64,000 nt of DNA from a virus (lineage: Duplodnaviria; Caudoviricetes), in IMG/VR virus record IMGVR_UViG_3300006169_000166, positions 4,590 through 68,589 of that record; one strand, given 5' to 3'. Positions 2,718 through 62,773 of the stretch are shown here, piece by piece. A model generated the notes under the pieces. The model did not search any database. It was not told where the DNA came from and saw only the letters and a program-made list of their open reading frames with translations. Made by a program: the position numbers and the translations under genes. Within the stretch, counting starts at the first letter, position 1; the number at the start of each line of letters is the position of its first letter.

Positions 2718-3419
2718 TTAGCCGATGTTGAAGTCGTCTTGCGGAGCCGAAGCGGCGGGTTTCGGAGCGCCGCCCATGTCGTCCTGCGGGACGTCGACTT
2801 CGTCGAACGCCGCATCGACATCGACGCCGCGGCTCGCGAAGGCTTCGCCATCCTTGGCGAACTGGATCGCCTCGAGGCTGGCGTTGATGCGCGACTTCTT
2901 ACCGTTATCACCCACATAGCCGTAGATGCGAATGATCGCGTTCACATAGCAGCCGGAATAAGGCGCGTAGGGGTCGCCCTCGTTCAGTTCGGCGAAGCGG
3001 CCGTCGGCGCCCTTGCGCGGCCCGATGACCTTGACCGGCCGCTTCTTCGTCCCGGCCTTGATCTGGTTCCACTCGTCGAGCTTCACCGGACGGTTGGCGG
3101 AGACGTAAAGGCAGCCTGCATAACCGTCATAGAGCGCTTTCGCCTCGTTCGTCGCTGCATCGACCGGTTCGCCATCGCGCAGGCAAAGCTGGTCGGCGCC
3201 GAACGCGGGCGGCGATTGGCCCCAGGTATTGATCCGCGCCTTCGCCATCGCATCCTTGACGAGCTGAATCGTCGCGGCGTCGGTTTTCGGGATCAGCAGT
3301 GCGCAGTTGAAATTCTTGCCAGTCACATTCCCGGCGTCGTCCTTGCGGTCCTGCGGGTCGAACACCCGGAAGAACGACAGGCGCACGCCTTGCAGCTTCA
3401 CTTCAATATCATCGGCCAT
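2718..3419 (-). CDS. DUF2815-family ssDNA-binding protein
   Basis: VRLSF, YSGCYVNA, NASLEAIQFAKDGEAF motifs, acidic tail, position beside Cas4-like nuclease and Pol. Confidence 0.85.
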   Translation of the reverse strand: MADDIEVKLQGVRLSFFRVFDPQDRKDDAGNVTGKNFNCALLIPKTDAATIQLVKDAMAKARINTWGQSPPAFGADQLCLRDGEPVDAATNEAKALYDGYAGCLYVSANRPVKLDEWNQIKAGTKKRPVKVIGPRKGADGRFAELNEGDPYAPYSGCYVNAIIRIYGYVGDNGKKSRINASLEAIQFAKDGEAFASRGVDVDAAFDEVDVPQDDMGGAPKPAASAPQDDFNIG

Positions 3420-4605
3420 TCTCAATCTCCACTTCATCAAACTTCTGCTCGAGCGGCGCGATGGCCGGGCGAGCGTCCTGGTCGCTGACCAACACCGGCT
3501 TGCGTGAGCCGCGGCAGATCAGTTTCTCGATTGCGGCGAAATCCTCCGCCCCGAGCTCTTTCGACACCTGTGTCGGCGTCTTGATTCGCTTGCTGAACCG
3601 GCCGTCACCGAGCAGGGGCGCGAGTTGCGTGTCCGCCTGCTCGGGGTCGAACCACTTGTCGGGCGACTTGCGCCCTTCGACGGCCTTCAACCCTCCGGAG
3701 GGAAGGCCGCGCAACGCATCGTCGAGGTGCTGGTTGTGCAGCGTGTCGAGCCAGTTCTCGAACAATTTGCGGTGGCGCAGGATGTGCGCGCGGCGCTCCG
3801 GCGTCATACCCATCAGCGGCAGGAACGGCGGGGCGGCGATCGCGATGTCGTCGTCTATCTCGCCGAACTTGCTTCCGATAACGTCGAGCATGAACTCGTC
3901 GAAGGTCGGGCAGCCGCCTGGAGCGATACGGCGGCGGCACCATTTGCAACCCTTCTCGGTCGCCGCGCGAGGCGCAAACGGGTCCTGCGTCGCGAGGGAT
4001 GCTGCACGAGCCTGTTCCCCGAAGTCGAGCAGGTCGCCAAGCGTCGTGTACCACTCTCCCCCGCCGCCCGAGCAACGGGGCTGGTCGACGACCAGGAGGA
4101 AACGGGTGCTGCGCGCGCCGTGAGTCTCGCGGCAGTGCTTGTGCCAGAAGCCGAGCGCGTAGAGCATCATCTGCTTGTTCTCGACGGCCTCGACGGGCAG
4201 GCCCCTGCCCCACTTGAGGTCGTCGATGACGATTAGGTCCGGCAGGATAACGCCGCGGTCGAGCGTCCCGAACTGGTCGGGTCCGAGCCAGTGGGAAAGG
4301 TCGACGCGATGCTCGCCGAAGAAACGGCCGCCGAACGACCGGATATAGTTGATGCCGAACGCAAGTTCGTCGGCGTCGTCCACCGTCCATTCGAAGTTGA
4401 AGCCTTCGATGGTTCCCCGGTGTCCGATGAAATCGTAAGGATCGAGTCCGAGGTCGAGGCAGAGCTCGCTGATATGGTGCGCGAAGGTGCCCTCGGCGGC
4501 AAACTCGCTGGTATCGTCCGGGAGTCCCTCCTGCGCGGCAACGCTGCCGGCGCAGTTCATCCAGGTCTCGGCACCGGACGGAGAAAGTTTGGCGTGGGCG
4601 GTCAA
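3409..4605 (-). CDS. DUF2800 Cas4-like PD-(D/E)XK exonuclease
   Basis: HAKLSPS...C, AAEGTFAH, FGTLD, DLKWGRG, QMMLYALG, CKWC. Confidence 0.88.
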   Translation of the reverse strand: MTAHAKLSPSGAETWMNCAGSVAAQEGLPDDTSEFAAEGTFAHHISELCLDLGLDPYDFIGHRGTIEGFNFEWTVDDADELAFGINYIRSFGGRFFGEHRVDLSHWLGPDQFGTLDRGVILPDLIVIDDLKWGRGLPVEAVENKQMMLYALGFWHKHCRETHGARSTRFLLVVDQPRCSGGGGEWYTTLGDLLDFGEQARAASLATQDPFAPRAATEKGCKWCRRRIAPGGCPTFDEFMLDVIGSKFGEIDDDIAIAAPPFLPLMGMTPERRAHILRHRKLFENWLDTLHNQHLDDALRGLPSGGLKAVEGRKSPDKWFDPEQADTQLAPLLGDGRFSKRIKTPTQVSKELGAEDFAAIEKLICRGSRKPVLVSDQDARPAIAPLEQKFDEVEIENGR

Positions 4606-5074: not shown

Positions 5075-5650
5075 TCAGCCGATGTTGAAGTCGTCGCCGC
5101 CGGCGGTCGCCGGAGCGCCGTCGTCCTGCGTGACATCGCCGTCGAAGTCGTAATCGTGGCTGAAGTTGACCGGCAGGCCTTCGTTCAGCCGGCGCAGGAA
5201 GAACAGCGCCTGCTTGCGTTCGTCCGCGCCGTTGATGCCGGTCTCGCCGACGAGCGTCGCGGTTCCGAAATGGGTCGTGATGGCCTTGATCTGGCCGCCC
5301 CTCTCCGCACGGGCGGCAGCGTCCTGGCCTGCGCCCGCGATATAGGTCTGGGCGGCGTTGCGCAGGTCATCCTCGGTGACTTCCGGCGTCGTCGCAGTAG
5401 GGGATGGTGCAGCAGCGTCTGAGGCGGCGGCAGTCGACGGGGCTGATGCACCGTTTCCCGCGTCCGTCGCGGCAGGCGCTTCGGCCTCGGCCTTCTTGCG
5501 GCTGCGGCTGGCCGGCTTAGGGGTTCCGCTGGCTGCGGCGTCGGTCAGTTGCGCGAGCGCAGCTTCGCGTCCCGCATTCATCACCTTCATTTCGGCGGTG
5601 TTTTCCTGCACCGCGGCAGTCAGCGCCTCGATGGCGGCTTCAATCGACAT
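5075..5650 (-). CDS. Hypothetical protein leading the replication operon
   Basis: MSIEAAIEALTAAV start with AGGAG RBS; Ala/Pro linker; ends DDFNIG. Confidence 0.75.
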   Translation of the reverse strand: MSIEAAIEALTAAVQENTAEMKVMNAGREAALAQLTDAAASGTPKPASRSRKKAEAEAPAATDAGNGASAPSTAAASDAAAPSPTATTPEVTEDDLRNAAQTYIAGAGQDAAARAERGGQIKAITTHFGTATLVGETGINGADERKQALFFLRRLNEGLPVNFSHDYDFDGDVTQDDGAPATAGGDDFNIG

Positions 5651-5815
5651 TTCTGCACTCCCTCTAGTCGGTTTGGCCCCGCCGCTCCGGCGAGTCGGGC
5701 TGTCTTGAACCACATCCGAAACTCTTAATCAACTATTTAGTGAGCACACACGCGTCAGTTGATTAGTCGGATTGGCGGGGTTAGGTTCGGGGCCGACCGG
5801 GAGGAGCGAATCGCA

Positions 5816-6124
5816 ATGGAAGTCACCGAGGCACAGCCGCGATTGGAATGGATGAACACGGAACTTTACCGTGTGCTGTCCGCGACCTTTCCCGAGATTC
5901 GCACAGAGCAGCAGAAGGTGCTCGACGTCGAAAAGCTGGCCGAAGAAATCGGTATGAGCGCGGAGGGCATCTACAAATGGTTCCGCAAGGGCCGCATCCT
6001 CTCGCCCCGCGGTCTCGGCAAGATCGTCGAACTGGCGAACTCACCGGAAAATGTCGCGGCGCTTGAGCGCGCGGGACGAACGCCTCCCACCAAGCAGGAT
6101 TTTGCGCGCCTGATGATCCCCTGA
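5816..6124 (+). CDS. Cro-like HTH regulator
   Basis: VEKLAEEIGMSAEGIYKWFR; divergent from the replication operon. Confidence 0.75.
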   Translation: MEVTEAQPRLEWMNTELYRVLSATFPEIRTEQQKVLDVEKLAEEIGMSAEGIYKWFRKGRILSPRGLGKIVELANSPENVAALERAGRTPPTKQDFARLMIP

Positions 6125-6170
6125 CGCCTTTCGCAACACGAGTGTCCAGGGGTCAAAAGAAAGTGCGTGA

Positions 6171-8666
6171 ATGACTGCGTTCGACGAACAGGTGCTGGCG
6201 ACGATCGAACCGCTCCGCAATGCGGGCTTCGCGCTTCATTGGCTTCACCCGAAAACCAAGCGCCCCATCGGCGACGACTGGTCGACCAAGCCTGTGGCGA
6301 CACTCGACACGCTCCGTCGCCGCCACGCGCCCGGCAACAATCTCGGTGTCCGTCTGGGGGAAGTCAGCAAGCTCACCATCGGGCTTTACCTGCACGTTCT
6401 CGACATCGACATCCGCGACGATTCGCTCGCCGACGAGGCCATCCTCAAGCTGGCGGCGATGTTCCCCGGAATAGACTTCGGCGCATTTCCGGTCGTCCGC
6501 TCCGGCTCGGGCGGCAAGTCCCGCCACGTCTATTTCCTGTGCGAACGCCACTTTCGGTCGAAGGATCTCGCCAAGAGTGCGACCTTCAAGATGGTGTTCG
6601 ACGACAAGCTCGGGCGCGAGGTCAAGAAGCGCGACTGGGAAATCAGCCTGTTCGGCAGCGGGAAGCAGGTCGTGCTTCCGCCGTCGATCCACCCCGACAC
6701 CGGCCTGCCCTACAGCTGGGAGCGCGAGTTTGATCTTGGCATGCTCAGTCTCGGCGTCGGCCCGAGCATTCCGGCCGCTCGGCTCAATGCGTTGGGTGCG
6801 ATGGACTGCGAGGTCGAGGACAGCCTTGAAATCAAGCCGCCGCTCGGCCTGACGCCGGAGGAAGCCGAATCGATCCTCGACGACCTGCCGCTCGAGGAAT
6901 ATTGCGAGGACCGCGATGGCTGGGTGCAGGTCGGCATGGCGCTGCACCACGAGTTCGGCGGCGGCGAAGAGGGTTATGCCCTCTGGAGCGAATTTTCGCA
7001 GCAGTCGGCCAAGTTCGACGACAAGAACCAGCGCACCGTCTGGAACAGCTTCCGCAACAAGCCCAATTCGGTTCGCATGGCGACCCTGCGCTCGGTCGCG
7101 CAGCAGGCGCGCCTGCTCAACGCGTTCGACGAGGTTGATGTCGACGATGACTCAGGCGGCGACGGTTTCGACGACATCATCGGCACTCCGGCCGCCGAGG
7201 GCGACGAGTTCGACGCAATCATCGGCTCGGCGACCGCCCCCGCGCTTGGATGGATGTCGCTGCTCCAGGTCACCAAGGACGGCGAGGGCTGGGCGTCGAA
7301 CCTCCACAACCTCGAACTGATCGTCAAGAACGACCCCAGGCTCGCCGGCATCGCGCAGATCAACGAGTTCACGCAGGAGGTCGTTCAGCGCCTGACGCCG
7401 GGCAAGCAATCTCCGCGCCGCAAGAACCAGGCCAAGCCCGTCAAGCAACTCGAAGGCCGCGTGTGGCACGTCGAGGACGAGCTCAACGGCGAACTCTGGT
7501 CGGAGGATCGCGACTTCGCCATCCGCTCCGTCATCGAGGCACCGCAGACTCAGGGCGGATACGGGATCAAGGTCACCGACCGGGATCTTCGCGCGGCGAT
7601 CGCCCTGTCGGCGCAGGATAGCGCTTTCCACCCGGTGCGCGAATATCTGAACGGGCTGACCTGGGACGAAACGCCCCGGGTCGAGACCCTGTTCATCGAC
7701 TATCTCGGCGCCGAAGCCACCTCCTATTCCCAGAGCATCGCCCGCCTGATGATGCTCGGTGCCGTCACGCGCATCTTCGAGCCGGGCCACAAGTTCGACT
7801 TCGCGGTCATCCTCGAGGGCCTTCAGGGCAAGAGGAAATCCACCTTCATCGAAACGCTCGGGCGACGCTGGTCGGCCGAACTCGACGGCGACTTCCACGA
7901 CCCGAAGATGATGGTCGAGTTGATGCAGGGCGCGTGGATCCTGGAATTGCCGGAGCTGACCGGCTTCCAGCGCTCGGACGTTCGCGCGATCAAGGCTTTC
8001 ATCAGCCGCAAGAAGGACCGCGTGCGCATGGCCTATGCCCGCCGCGCCGGCCAGTACCCGCGGCAGTGCATCTTCATGGGGTCGACCAACGACCGCGAAT
8101 ATCTGAAGGACGACACCGGCGGGCGCCGCTTCTGGCCGATGCCCTGCTACGTCGCCGAGATCGACACCGACCGGCTCGAGGCGAACGTCGACCAGTTGTG
8201 GGCCGAGGCCACGGCGATGTACCGGCAGCTGCGCGCCGAGCAGCCGCGAGGCACCCTGCCGCTATATCTCCGGGACGACGAGGCCAAGGAGATCGCCGCA
8301 CGACTCCAGGAATCCCGCAGGCAGGAAAACTCGGACGACGGGCTTGCCGGCGTCATCGGCGCCTGGCTCGATCAGCCCGTCAACGAGGGTGGGTTTGAGG
8401 AAGTCACGGAGGACGGGCAGCCGACCTACCGCGACCGCGTCTGCCTGCCGGAAATCTGGGTCGATTGCCTCCGCGGCGACGTCAAGAATTATACGGCGAC
8501 CCAGGCGCAGGCGCTCGGCCGAGCGATGGCGAAGGGCGTCATTGCCGCCGACTGGCAGCCGCAGGGCACGCATCGCCACCCGATCTACGGCAAGCAGCGC
8601 TGCTACCGCCGCGTGACGCCGCTGGAGACGCCTGCCGGGCCGGACGAGTTCGCGGTTATCGGGTGA
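6171..8666 (+). CDS. Primase-helicase (bifunctional primase/polymerase, PriCT-2, VirE-like ATPase)
   Basis: LHWLHPKTKRP, DID, WVQVGMALHHE, Walker A GLQGKRKST, GSTN, GGRRFWP. Confidence 0.9.
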   Translation: MTAFDEQVLATIEPLRNAGFALHWLHPKTKRPIGDDWSTKPVATLDTLRRRHAPGNNLGVRLGEVSKLTIGLYLHVLDIDIRDDSLADEAILKLAAMFPGIDFGAFPVVRSGSGGKSRHVYFLCERHFRSKDLAKSATFKMVFDDKLGREVKKRDWEISLFGSGKQVVLPPSIHPDTGLPYSWEREFDLGMLSLGVGPSIPAARLNALGAMDCEVEDSLEIKPPLGLTPEEAESILDDLPLEEYCEDRDGWVQVGMALHHEFGGGEEGYALWSEFSQQSAKFDDKNQRTVWNSFRNKPNSVRMATLRSVAQQARLLNAFDEVDVDDDSGGDGFDDIIGTPAAEGDEFDAIIGSATAPALGWMSLLQVTKDGEGWASNLHNLELIVKNDPRLAGIAQINEFTQEVVQRLTPGKQSPRRKNQAKPVKQLEGRVWHVEDELNGELWSEDRDFAIRSVIEAPQTQGGYGIKVTDRDLRAAIALSAQDSAFHPVREYLNGLTWDETPRVETLFIDYLGAEATSYSQSIARLMMLGAVTRIFEPGHKFDFAVILEGLQGKRKSTFIETLGRRWSAELDGDFHDPKMMVELMQGAWILELPELTGFQRSDVRAIKAFISRKKDRVRMAYARRAGQYPRQCIFMGSTNDREYLKDDTGGRRFWPMPCYVAEIDTDRLEANVDQLWAEATAMYRQLRAEQPRGTLPLYLRDDEAKEIAARLQESRRQENSDDGLAGVIGAWLDQPVNEGGFEEVTEDGQPTYRDRVCLPEIWVDCLRGDVKNYTATQAQALGRAMAKGVIAADWQPQGTHRHPIYGKQRCYRRVTPLETPAGPDEFAVIG

Positions 8667-9193
8667 TGGCGACCGCACAGGACATCCTTGATGCGCTGAT
8701 CGCCGGCTGCGACGACAGCTTCATCTGGGCCAGTGAATTGTCGCTTTCGACCGGAGCGCGGCGCTGCGATTTCTGGACGATCGCCCCTCATCAATCGAAG
8801 GGTTATCTGGCGACCGCCTACGAGATTAAGGTCTCGCGCTCCGATTTTCGGAGGGACAATGCGGTAAAGCAGCGCGAGGCGCGTCTGTTCAGCGACCGCT
8901 TCTATTATGCGACACCTCCTGGCCTGCTCGCTCCCGAGGAAATCCCCGATTGGGCTGGTCTGATTGAGGTGACCGCCGAGAAGCGCAAAATCGTCGTTCC
9001 GGCGCCGCTCAGGGACAAGGACGCGCCGAGTTGGGAGCTCATCGTTTCACTGCTGCGCAACAGCGGCCAGATCAGGCGCGACGCAGACCTAGTTCGCAAG
9101 GAGCGCGACCGGCTGCGTCGCCAGTTGAAGGATGCGAGTGACCGCCTTCGCGCGAAGGGTGAGCAGCCGTGGCAATTCGGGATCCACGGATAG
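8666..9193 (+). CDS. MmcB-like PD-(D/E)XK nuclease-family protein
   Basis: RRCD, YEIKVSRSDF, FYYATPPGLL, WAGLI. Confidence 0.7.
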   Translation: MATAQDILDALIAGCDDSFIWASELSLSTGARRCDFWTIAPHQSKGYLATAYEIKVSRSDFRRDNAVKQREARLFSDRFYYATPPGLLAPEEIPDWAGLIEVTAEKRKIVVPAPLRDKDAPSWELIVSLLRNSGQIRRDADLVRKERDRLRRQLKDASDRLRAKGEQPWQFGIHG

Positions 9194-10160
9194 GTGCCTG
9201 ACGGGCCGGATTGCTAATCCGCTCAGAGTCGCGCCGTACCCGTCAGGCTAGTCGAACCTGGTCAACCGCTCGCTACCCACCCCTGCTTTCCTGACCGCGT
9301 TCCGGCGGCGAGTCCGCAGGGCCTAAGCCTCGTCCGTTGTCGCTCGACTAAACTATGGTCGGAATCGCGGGCTACAACGGGCCTAGCCCTCACCCCATCC
9401 CGACTAGCGCGTGCACACGCCAGCACCGTCTTTCCGGCTGCCAGGCCTGATTTCGCTCTATGCCCGCGTCCGATGAAGCGGTCGGAACCCGCATCCGGCG
9501 TAGGCCCCGGCCCCGATGGGCACGCAAAAACGTTGCACCGAAACTGTGTTTGGAAGGACGGCGTCCGGAGGTCGGGTTCCCCAAGGTTGCGACCCTTAGA
9601 CCTACTGTCGACGCGTCGCCGCCCATTCAAACACAGCCGACAGAGTTTTAGGCCATACAGCCGATTGGGCCGGACAAGTTTTCACGCCTTCTCCGAGGCG
9701 GCTGACGGTATAGCGGATTCTTACCGCTTCTCCCGGCCTTTCAGCCTTCGCGTGTTGCTTTCACACCATTTCACCGTCAGCGGCGGCGGGAGTTGTCCGG
9801 ACGAATGCAGCTCCCGCGGTCTGCATAGATTGACTGGCCGGACACAGCCGCCACCTTGTCCCCGTGGGGTGGCGTAAGCCCGTGTCGCCGCGAAGCGTGG
9901 GGAGGCTCACCTCTTAAACTCATTCGAGGGCTTTCACCTCGCGCCCGATCAGCGCCCGGGACGCTTTCACGGTCTGCGGTGCAACCCTTGCGGGTGTCGT
10001 CCGGGAAGCCCTTCCGCTGCTACAACCCAGACCGAGTCCGGTGGATCTCCGGACGCCCATTTGTGCGGCTCCCCTGTGGCCTCAAGGAGCAGCGCGGAGT
10101 CCCCGTTGCCGGGTGTACCGTGTCGACTAATCTCTCTCCGAGGAGGGAGGGGTGCCATGA
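9190..10160 (-). ncRNA. Candidate large structured ncRNA (~950 nt), family unassigned
   Basis: Dense nested helices, GNRA and UGAAAG loops, G-U pairs and crossing helices on the minus strand; no credible ORF; promoter-like TTGACT at 10195-10200. Confidence 0.7.
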
Positions 10161-10363
10161 CCTACGAATCACCTACTCCGACTCACGCGACTGAGTCAAC
10201 TGTAAAGTGATTGCGCGATTTCGAATGGGTTCGCGCAGCAATTCCTTCCGAACCCAAACCGGACTCGAATTACGGCTGCCGATCGCTACAAATTCCGGAG
10301 TTTTAAAATAGGTTTTGATTCAGAACGCATCCGCTCGGTTTCGCCGCGATCCGGACGCCGGCT

Positions 10364-10678
10364 GGTAACAGGCCCCTCGGCTGTTACCGACCTGTTACCA
10401 GGGCCTGTTACCACAGATTCCGCAGAAATCCGCCGCAAAACGGGATGGTAACAGGTGGAACAGGCATTTTCCTTATAGAGAATGTCGTTTCAGGGGATTC
10501 TGCGCACTTTTCGGCTCGACCAGTGCCTGACCGCAGGGTTCTAAACCTGTAAAACGACAAACTTCTAAGGAAAAGCCTGTTCCACCTGTTACCAGTGACC
10601 TTATCCTTATGATTTCAAACGGAAAAAGCGGTAACAGGTGCCGGTAACAGGCCGGTAACAGGTAAAGGGCCTGTTACC
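10364..10678. repeat. Dyad-symmetric cluster of GGTAACAG(G)/(C)CTGTTACC iterons; candidate replication origin
   Basis: 10 copies plus 2 GGAACAGG variants; ~46-bp imperfect inverted repeat at 10447-10493 / 10547-10593. Confidence 0.75.
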
Positions 10679-62285: not shown

Positions 62286-62545
62286 CCGATCAACCCCTCG
62301 AGTTCGGGGTCGAGACCGGGTTGAAGCACCGGCGCACCTTCAACCTCCTCAGCCTGCCAGTGGCGCACCTCGGTGGACAGCCAGAAGCGGCGGCCCGGGT
62401 TGTTGCGATAGGAACGAGACCGCGGGAATTTCCCGAGGCTCTGCTGCCGGTAGATTTCCGTCCGCGAGAGGCCGACCTTCTGGATCACCGTTTTCAGCGG
62501 CCAGAACTCGACATCGTCAGCGGCCAGTTGCTCTGCTGTGCTCAT
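62282..62545 (-). CDS. AlpA-family excisionase/regulator
   Basis: VIQKVGLSRTEIYR....GKFP, WLSTEV..W. Confidence 0.88.
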   Translation of the reverse strand: MSTAEQLAADDVEFWPLKTVIQKVGLSRTEIYRQQSLGKFPRSRSYRNNPGRRFWLSTEVRHWQAEEVEGAPVLQPGLDPELEGLIG

Positions 62546-62577
62546 CACCCCGCCCGTCCAACTCAACCGTTGCGTGT

Positions 62578-62624
62578 GTTCTAATCACGCGAAAGTTGAT
62601 TTGCAAGCGGTGTTTCGATATTCA
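62578..62624. promoter_or_regulatory. Overlapping divergent promoters with palindromic operator
   Basis: Minus: TTGCAA-N17-TAGAAC with TCAC-N7-TTGA (62585-62599) in the spacer; plus: TTGATT-N17-TATTCA. Confidence 0.55.
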
Positions 62625-62735
62625 GCTTGGGACAGCATGGGACGACCTCACGGCGTCCTGTCCGGTCAGCGATGGAGGTGGTTATGAAGCGCTAATGGCT
62701 CGGCATCCGGAGGCCCACCGGACTTAAACAATCAC

Positions 62736-62770
62736 AGCCCCGGCCGCGAACCCCGCCGCCGGGGCTTTTT
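62736..62770 (+). terminator. Rho-independent terminator facing the integrase 3' end
   Basis: AGCCCCGG/CCGGGGCT stem plus T-tract on the plus strand. Confidence 0.75.
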
Positions 62771-62773
62771 GCT

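Follow-up and report, generated by a model that had tools for sequence, protein, structure and literature searches.

A probable new family of modular, pseudoknotted RNAs encoded mostly after the primase gene of uncultured phages

In this work, we analysed a 64,000-nt stretch of viral DNA (the window), which covers positions 4590-68589 of a 68.6-kb IMG/VR provirus. The region of interest is a gene-free stretch of ~1 kb that follows the primase operon, and we consider that window positions 9194 to ~10165, read on the minus strand, probably represent a non-coding RNA gene that stands alone and belongs to a family not described before. A preceding reading of this DNA, made without any homologues and called below the sequence-only reading, had placed here a single ornate RNA of ~950 nt. 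Our comparative data bear out a structured RNA gene but do not show a single conserved fold: only ~270 nt, arranged in two blocks, are preserved throughout the family and the remainder is modular, so that the label of a giant ornate RNA is only partly new. In the order of transcription, the unit would comprise block 1, a variable middle, block 2 and, in the window, ~590 nt of further hairpin modules. Structure deduced from one sequence is a hint and not a proof, and the real evidence comes from the comparative data.

The most conserved part of the unit is block 2, a double pseudoknot built of six helices (Table 1). Nine sequences of this block were aligned with plain MAFFT, with no fitting to a structure (alignment A1), and RNAalifold returned four helices with compensatory changes at 12 of 30 pairs. 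Addition of the crossing helix from the sequence-only reading and of a second pseudoknot noted by eye gave a model of 38 pairs, in which 98.1% of the alignment cells were paired, vs. 86.2% after shuffling of the columns and 37-44% after the partner was slid by 1-3 columns. Compensatory changes were present at 17 of the 38 pairs, vs. 6.1 in shuffles and 2-7 in the slid controls, and none of the 500 shuffles matched the observed value on any measure. The pseudoknot formed by H3 and H4, which had been predicted from the single sequence, gained compensatory changes in both of its helices, and so did the predicted H1. In H4 the loop of H3 pairs with the tail behind H2, and in PKa the invariant loop of H1 pairs with a strand inside Hx; a single compensatory event was found in PKa, UCCCC/GGGGA being replaced by UCUCC/GGAGA in the relative L041. 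Another predicted helix, 9841-9845/9882-9886, did not survive: its strands are complementary but not conserved, and it clashes with the covariation-supported H2.

The window copy keeps all 38 pairs of block 2 intact despite a sequence difference of ~25% from its relatives. Deletions respect the helices, so that the relative L042 lacks exactly Hx plus its contents, and the variable hairpin inside Hx, which reaches ~25 nt, is short or absent in the window and in L045 (absent in the latter). Block 1, modelled with RNAalifold on alignment A2, has five helices; 91.5% of its cells are paired, vs. 84.6% in shuffles and 33-52% when slid, and six pairs show compensatory changes. Base-paired structure is under selection in the conserved blocks.

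The polarity of the RNA can be read from the same alignment. The block-2 helices contain 23 G·U cells vs. a single A·C, and a fold of the plus strand would lose ~7% of the pairs. Because of this asymmetry, and because the conserved promoter-like sequence lies on the same side, the RNA strand is the minus one, in agreement with the sequence-only reading. The same counts exclude a DNA cruciform, which would not tolerate 23 G·T vs. one A·C.

The homologues were obtained mostly through the primase gene. An IMG/VR contig with a primase 63% identical to that of the window (locus L019) has syntenic matches to window positions 9792-9923 and 10061-10127 right after the primase stop codon, and primases of 66-69% identity led to seven more loci (L031, L033, L035, L040, L041, L042 and L044). 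A pattern derived from the conserved core revealed the tenth copy, L045 (IMGVR_UViG_3300030688_001310, element at 5950-6400 on the plus strand), which is identical in L046. Collecting homologues, a check proposed in the sequence-only reading, thus gave a family of ten copies including the window, with compensatory changes among them. Nine are primase-linked, those of the relatives lying after primase genes of uncultured phages 63-69% identical to the window's, and one (L045) is located between int and alpA. The latter element is flanked by an AlpA gene (5601-5828) and a P4-type integrase gene (6412-7593), both on the minus strand, possesses its own promoter-like site (TTGACA-N17-CATAAA) and has no primase or iterons near its block 2. 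A covariance model of block 2 (R1) found nine copies in 21 sources, the window copy scoring 152 bits (E = 2.5e-43).

Other routes gave no further members. With the MmcB-like gene as an anchor, 53-85% relatives (L002-L008, L015-L018) were found in unrelated contexts and without a homologue of the RNA region, and a primase-gene search of genome contigs returned no related locus. Two-motif scans of metagenome and genome contigs produced only chance matches (L027-L030), a 16-mer scan run on viral contigs likewise gave chance hits except for the L019 contig, and further pattern scans of viral contigs recovered only L019/L022 and L045/L046. Among the 401 genomes searched, sampled from the class of genome G006, none showed the block-2 pattern, and relatives of the L045 integrase carry no block 2. 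BLAST gave no match of the window region in GenBank phages and plasmids or of the L041 and L031 elements in phages, the RNA region has no repeats elsewhere within the window, and a literature search returned no description of this RNA.

The region does not encode a protein. From 9194 to ~10200 there is no open reading frame (ORF) longer than 134 amino acids (aa), with a G+C content (GC) of 61-65%. The GC of the three codon positions is equal in the RNA region (maximum minus minimum ≤0.16, vs. 0.2-0.38 in the flanking genes), and no frame-specific GC periodicity was detected over 9200 to ~11300. The variable columns of block 2 are distributed over the codon phases as 20/26/28, which means no codon periodicity. 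The indels that distinguish the homologues are not multiples of three, and the conserved blocks fall into different frames in different phages. The single conserved AUG opens ORFs of 10-104 aa with unrelated sequences, and neither L035 nor L041 has retained it as a start. The view of the sequence-only reading that the ORFs here are noise is thereby upheld by the absence of a long ORF, of third-position GC periodicity and of codon-phased variation; codon-level conservation of a short ORF, named there as an observation that would speak against an RNA, was not seen across the homologues. The stretch 9194 to ~10165 is non-coding.

We next compared the region with known RNA families by using cmscan and Rfam 15. 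At gathering scores nothing matched in the whole window; with permissive filters and E up to 10, the segment 8900-10600 gave only chance-level matches, none of them to GOLLD, ROOL, introns, transfer-messenger RNA (tmRNA) or RNase P. This covers the models of GOLLD (RF01998) and ROOL (RF03087), neither of which matched in the window at gathering scores or in 8900-10600 up to E = 10. The group I and group II intron models (catalytic core, domain V) had no match in the window, and the two-piece tmRNA models RF01849 and RF04321 had none either, with neither a tag frame nor a tRNA-like domain present there. An nhmmer profile of the relatives' tmRNA likewise found nothing in the window, and ARAGORN was negative in the window at default and 90% thresholds, its calls at 80% being noise. 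The only riboswitch match, to the S-adenosylmethionine (SAM) class at 9307-9409, reached 16 bits vs. a gathering score of 44.4 (E = 3.4) and is at chance level; for the known riboswitch classes no aptamer match rose above chance, and a strict scan gave no terminator-like expression platform. Rfam holds an int-alpA RNA motif; cmscan of L045 positions 5600-6700 with E up to 1 matched no family, this motif included. The likeness of a block-2 helix, GUGAGCC/GGCUUAC, to the P4 region of RNase P was dropped in the absence of an RNase P model match. The sequence-only reading had left the choice between a divergent GOLLD/ROOL member and a new class; the blank Rfam searches speak for the second and against the first, and we regard the RNA as a class of its own, not as a divergent GOLLD, ROOL, intron or tmRNA.

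The conserved blocks are embedded in a unit of variable composition, whose length ranges from ~350 nt in L044 to ~970 nt in the window, the longest. L044 has block 1 and other modules without block 2, and L045 has block 2 without block 1. The spacer between the blocks is 1 nt in L019 (where an adjoining simple hairpin is counted inside the block-1 alignment columns), 125 nt long in the window and as long as 281 nt in L031; the relatives other than L019 have 60-280 nt of other modules between the blocks. The multi-hairpin middle domain of the window has no direct counterpart in relatives; L019 has a single hairpin there. Lineage-specific sequence of 63-584 nt follows block 2 on its 3′ side. Some of it recurs: module E is common with L035 (6673-6745, 81% identity), and, as judged by eye, its stem changes from GGCC/GGCC in the window to GGUG/CACC in L035 around a near-identical loop. 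Module C is common with L031 and L041, which have it between blocks 1 and 2; its hairpin, set between conserved GGUGCUG and AGUCG(G/A)G, is formed by three different complementary stems. Two parts of module F, 9258-9305 (81% over 48 nt) and 9321-9339 (95% over 19 nt), are common with L031. Altogether, ~540 of the ~970 nt of the window unit (~55%) have a counterpart in some relative. Between phages, the modules have been gained, lost and put in a different order.

In three of the ten members, the unit also carries a tmRNA or a tRNA-like domain. The tmRNAs came to light in a permissive Rfam scan of the relatives' loci. L041 has a complete alphaproteobacterial two-piece tmRNA at 3200-3546 on the minus strand (99.8 bits, E = 5e-26), whose tag ANDNTVSAVTRLAA ends in TRLAA, and L033 has a complete two-piece tmRNA at 6492-6863 on the minus strand (66.8 bits with alpha_tmRNA, 82.7 bits with the permuted-tmRNA model; tag ANDNTPFVENRLAA). 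Both were missed by ARAGORN at default settings, and lowered thresholds recovered both tags. They share the strand of the blocks and are located 3′ of block 2; their end is marked by the stop codon of a convergent gene, namely the primase gene in L033 and a small ORF after the primase in L041. Of a tmRNA gene, L040 retains no more than the last ~34 nt. In L045, block 2 is followed on its 3′ side by a tRNA-Trp(CCA)-like domain with the canonical T-arm CCGGGG-UUCAAUU-CCCCGG and a closing stem of 13-14 bp. A full tmRNA is absent from seven of the nine primase-linked members, which still keep the blocks. These observations suggest that the locus is an RNA-only cassette, in which a constant promoter and structured blocks are combined with exchangeable RNA cargo. 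Judged by the type of tmRNA in the relatives, the host is probably an alphaproteobacterium.

A putative promoter of the sigma-70 type can be recognized in front of block 1. The −35 hexamer TTGACT had been noticed in the sequence-only reading but one base off, at 10195-10200. Of the eight primase-linked homologues, six have (G)TTGACT at this position; L042 has GTTGATT, and L033 has a different upstream sequence that contains TTGACT. The position and spacing of the −10 element are conserved, its sequence being TATACC in six relatives, TATATC in L041 and CATAC in L035. Transcription would start near 10164, and in the primase-linked copies other than L033 the promoter is followed by a near-invariant GAUUCGCAGGUCAUGGCAC. 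A perfect inverted repeat covers the −35 element and the spacer and represents a candidate operator: it is the only perfect match in the window, with a chance expectation of 2.2 at ≤2 mismatches. Most homologues have GTCAA-N7-TTGAC instead, with its right arm inside the −35 element, followed by TTGAGTC. The half-site TGASTCR, considered as a repeated operator, was dropped, being not enriched in the window (21 observed vs. 31 expected).

At the other end, the terminal GC-rich stem-loop, at a distance of 3 nt from the convergent mmcB-like gene's stop codon, is likely the 3′ end of the RNA or a terminator without a U-tract; the RNA units of the relatives likewise end at the stop codon of a convergent gene. 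One transcript of ~970 nt, extending from ~10164 to this terminal stem, would thus cover the whole unit.

The single-sequence features fit this picture to varying degrees. All nine helices listed in the sequence-only reading turned out to be perfect Watson-Crick complements. Perfect local stems of at least 9 bp number three vs. 0.48 in shuffles (8/500), an enrichment of about sixfold, and those of at least 7 bp number 14 vs. 7.2 (7/500), about twofold. GAAA occurs nine times on the minus strand of the region and once on the plus strand, the rate for the whole window being ~3.1 per kb. The UGAAAG loops assigned to the minus strand were counted as described, four there vs. none on the plus strand. 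The z-score of the minimum free energy (MFE) is weak for the whole region (−1.6 on the minus and −1.4 on the plus strand), and the 3′ part, 9194-9785, alone reaches −2.9. A T-arm-like string reported near the 3′ end is indeed present, but forms no proper T-stem and shows no conservation; on these grounds, and because ARAGORN was negative down to 90% thresholds, we rejected it as a tRNA-like domain.

Table 1. Window coordinates of the RNA unit, its parts and the neighbouring genes
Feature	Position	Strand	Description
Block 1	10052-10170	−	conserved 5′ domain, five helices
Variable middle domain	9924-10051	−	multi-hairpin in the window
Block 2	9786-9923	−	conserved double-pseudoknot core, six helices
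Hx	9904-9909 / 9875-9880	−	helix of block 2
PKa	9899-9903 / 9859-9863	−	pseudoknot of block 2
H1	9868-9874 / 9849-9855	−	helix of block 2
H2	9838-9844 / 9794-9800	−	helix of block 2
H3	9821-9826 / 9805-9810	−	helix of block 2
H4	9811-9817 / 9786-9792	−	pseudoknot of block 2
Module E	9635-9704	−	hairpin module
Module C	9395-9528	−	module with counterparts in L031 and L041
Module F	9258-9339	−	module partly common with L031
−35 element TTGACT	10194-10199	−	putative promoter
−10 element GTAGGT	10171-10176	−	putative promoter, 17 nt after the −35
Inverted repeat GACTCA-N6-TGAGTC	10180-10197		candidate operator
Terminal stem-loop, 10 bp	9196-9248	−	likely 3′ end or terminator
DUF2800 exonuclease gene	3409-4605	−	replication module, primase side of the RNA unit
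Small helix-turn-helix gene	5759-6124		replication module
Prim-Pol/PriCT-2/VapE primase-helicase gene	6171-8666	+	flank; anchor that yielded the homologues
MmcB-like gene	8666-9193	+	flank; Pfam PF06319, PHROG 5429

The surroundings of the unit vary among the relatives. The RNA gene is convergent to the primase-mmcB operon, and beyond its promoter a lower-GC stretch is followed by an iteron-like array at 10364-10678. The phage has two helix-turn-helix regulators, encoded at 5075-5713 and 5759-6124. Inserted between the primase and the RNA unit is the MmcB-like gene: it is absent from this place in every RNA-carrying relative, L041 having a small ORF there, and its own 75-85% relatives reside in quite different phage contexts without the RNA, which is typical mosaicism. 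The iteron-like repeats near the RNA promoter differ, being GGTAACAG in the window, (C/G)ACAAC(C/T) in L019 (8640-8960) and CCTGTGCA in L062 (3180-3500), and GTCCCAT/ATGGGAC repeats beside the iterons are shared; this looks like an origin specificity swapped together with the primase-helicase gene. L062, a relative without the RNA unit, has in its place two small minus-strand ORFs followed by the iterons (2807-3900). An extra gene of 168-211 aa is located between the RNA promoter and the iterons in L019 (8015-8650), L031 (7464-7979) and L035 (7254-7760) and is missing in the window; the two copies scanned, those of L019 and L031, gave no Pfam family. The window has a P4-type int of its own (62774-64000), separated from alpA by a short spacer (62545-62774) with only a terminator-like hairpin; unlike in L045, neither block 2 nor a tRNA-like element occurs there.

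As to the mechanism, the promoter faces away from the iteron/origin region and converges on the primase-mmcB operon, and the RNA would be made early or on induction. We tentatively suggest that, made early after induction, it acts in trans as a folded molecule on the translation machinery or on the machinery that handles tRNA and tmRNA. A more detailed version, which we put forward still more cautiously, is that blocks 1 and 2 form a pseudoknotted, early-expressed chassis that carries interchangeable cargo and is itself a machine acting on host translation, ribosome rescue or tRNA processing. Such a chassis may serve as a platform for binding or assembly, may be a ribozyme, or may form RNA-only oligomers in the manner of GOLLD and ROOL. 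The assignment of the locus as a structured RNA gene is well founded, and its function is speculative.

Several observations weigh against a stand-alone functional RNA gene as the explanation of the locus. The functional proposal is drawn from the neighbourhood alone. The family numbers only ten members, nine of them metagenomic, so the covariation counts come from few and related sequences, and the thermodynamic stability of the comparatively supported core is no better than that of shuffles. About 45% of the window transcript has no counterpart anywhere and may be neutral filler. The −10 element of the window differs from TATACC, the sequence in most relatives, and strict scans for sigma-70 promoters and for terminators call nothing at the RNA unit. 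Finally, L062, whose primase is 67% identical, lacks the unit, which makes it dispensable for the basic cycle in this phage group; L043 (60%) lacks it as well, and because of these two relatives the locus is considered accessory.

Ranked second is a cis-acting leader or riboswitch, in which blocks 1 and 2 would sense a signal or undergo processing and thereby control or mature the RNA cargo downstream. Block 2 does look like an aptamer, as it is compact and pseudoknotted with invariant loop nucleotides, and wherever it is present it lies 5′ of the variable cargo. A precedent exists in phage Melnitz, where a two-piece tmRNA (ssrA) is located behind a glutamine riboswitch after an early promoter (PMC9004378). 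We nevertheless find this explanation unlikely: block 2 is followed by neither a terminator nor another expression platform, none of the known riboswitch models matches, and the tmRNA model in L033 begins just where block 2 ends or else within the block. Moreover, the order of the modules relative to block 2 changes, and L044 retains block 1 and modules without any block 2.

It is also conceivable, though we deem it rather improbable, that the act of transcription is what matters, dampening or terminating the primase operon or helping to open the origin, and that the RNA is incidental. Transcription of gidA activates oriC in E. coli, and in our case the promoter is directed away from the iteron array, at a distance of ~165 bp, and the unit is convergent to the primase/mmcB operon, with its end at the convergent stop codon in every member. 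This view does not account for the compensatory changes across eleven helices, the G·U asymmetry or the invariant loops, nor for the fact that block 2 also occurs in an int-alpA element, where neither a primase nor iterons are nearby. A role of transcription, either in interference with the primase or in origin activation, may coexist with a function of the RNA.

The absence of any functional RNA, with the region being a decaying remnant (of genes, for example, or of a tmRNA locus that was lost) or a DNA structure of the origin, seems very improbable to us. The truncated tmRNA of L040, the lack of the unit in L062, the large unique portion of the window copy (nearly half) and the weak MFE z-scores would all be compatible with decay, but a remnant would hardly have kept every block-2 pair at such divergence by means of compensatory changes, and the blocks persist in members that have no full tmRNA. 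We give the least credence to a highly divergent GOLLD, ROOL, ORF-less group II intron or degenerate tmRNA, since the resemblance to GOLLD/ROOL in size, prophage location, pseudoknots, GNRA-type loops and tRNA/tmRNA neighbourhood (PMC5737381), as well as the tmRNA at the same locus in relatives, is opposed by the blank results of the permissive cmscan, of nhmmer and of ARAGORN described above.

We therefore return to the RNA as a gene in its own right when comparing it with known systems. Large, intricately folded RNAs of bacteria and phages are rare, and nearly every one that has been studied revealed unusual biochemistry. In the GOLLD model, the 3′ half is conserved and comprises multistem junctions as well as pseudoknots, and the ROOL model, of ~580 nt, contains six multistem junctions along with three pseudoknots. 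Like them, the RNA described here is pseudoknotted, partly conserved and partly variable, located in a prophage and, in relatives, close to tRNA or tmRNA elements, and no neighbouring gene hints at its function. GOLLD and ROOL have been reported in prophages next to tRNAs, with which they may be co-transcribed (PMC5737381); location alone does not establish membership. Unlike them, it matches neither model, its core of ~270 nt is divided into two separable blocks, its modules are re-ordered and can be absent, and its host range appears to be narrow, with ten metagenomic or proviral copies.

The ssrA locus of Melnitz is similar in that L033 and L041 have a tmRNA behind structured blocks in the same minus-strand unit. 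The difference is that the blocks match no known riboswitch and that most members, including the window, are devoid of a tmRNA. With phage tRNA/tmRNA islands the locus shares an accessory, RNA-only character and a content that varies among close relatives, down to complete absence in L062, but blocks 1 and 2 are not tRNA-like and match no known RNA, and the locus as a whole apparently has one promoter in common. A family of RNAs with exchangeable domains thus offers a handle on the question of why prophages carry big structured RNAs beside tRNA-type genes.

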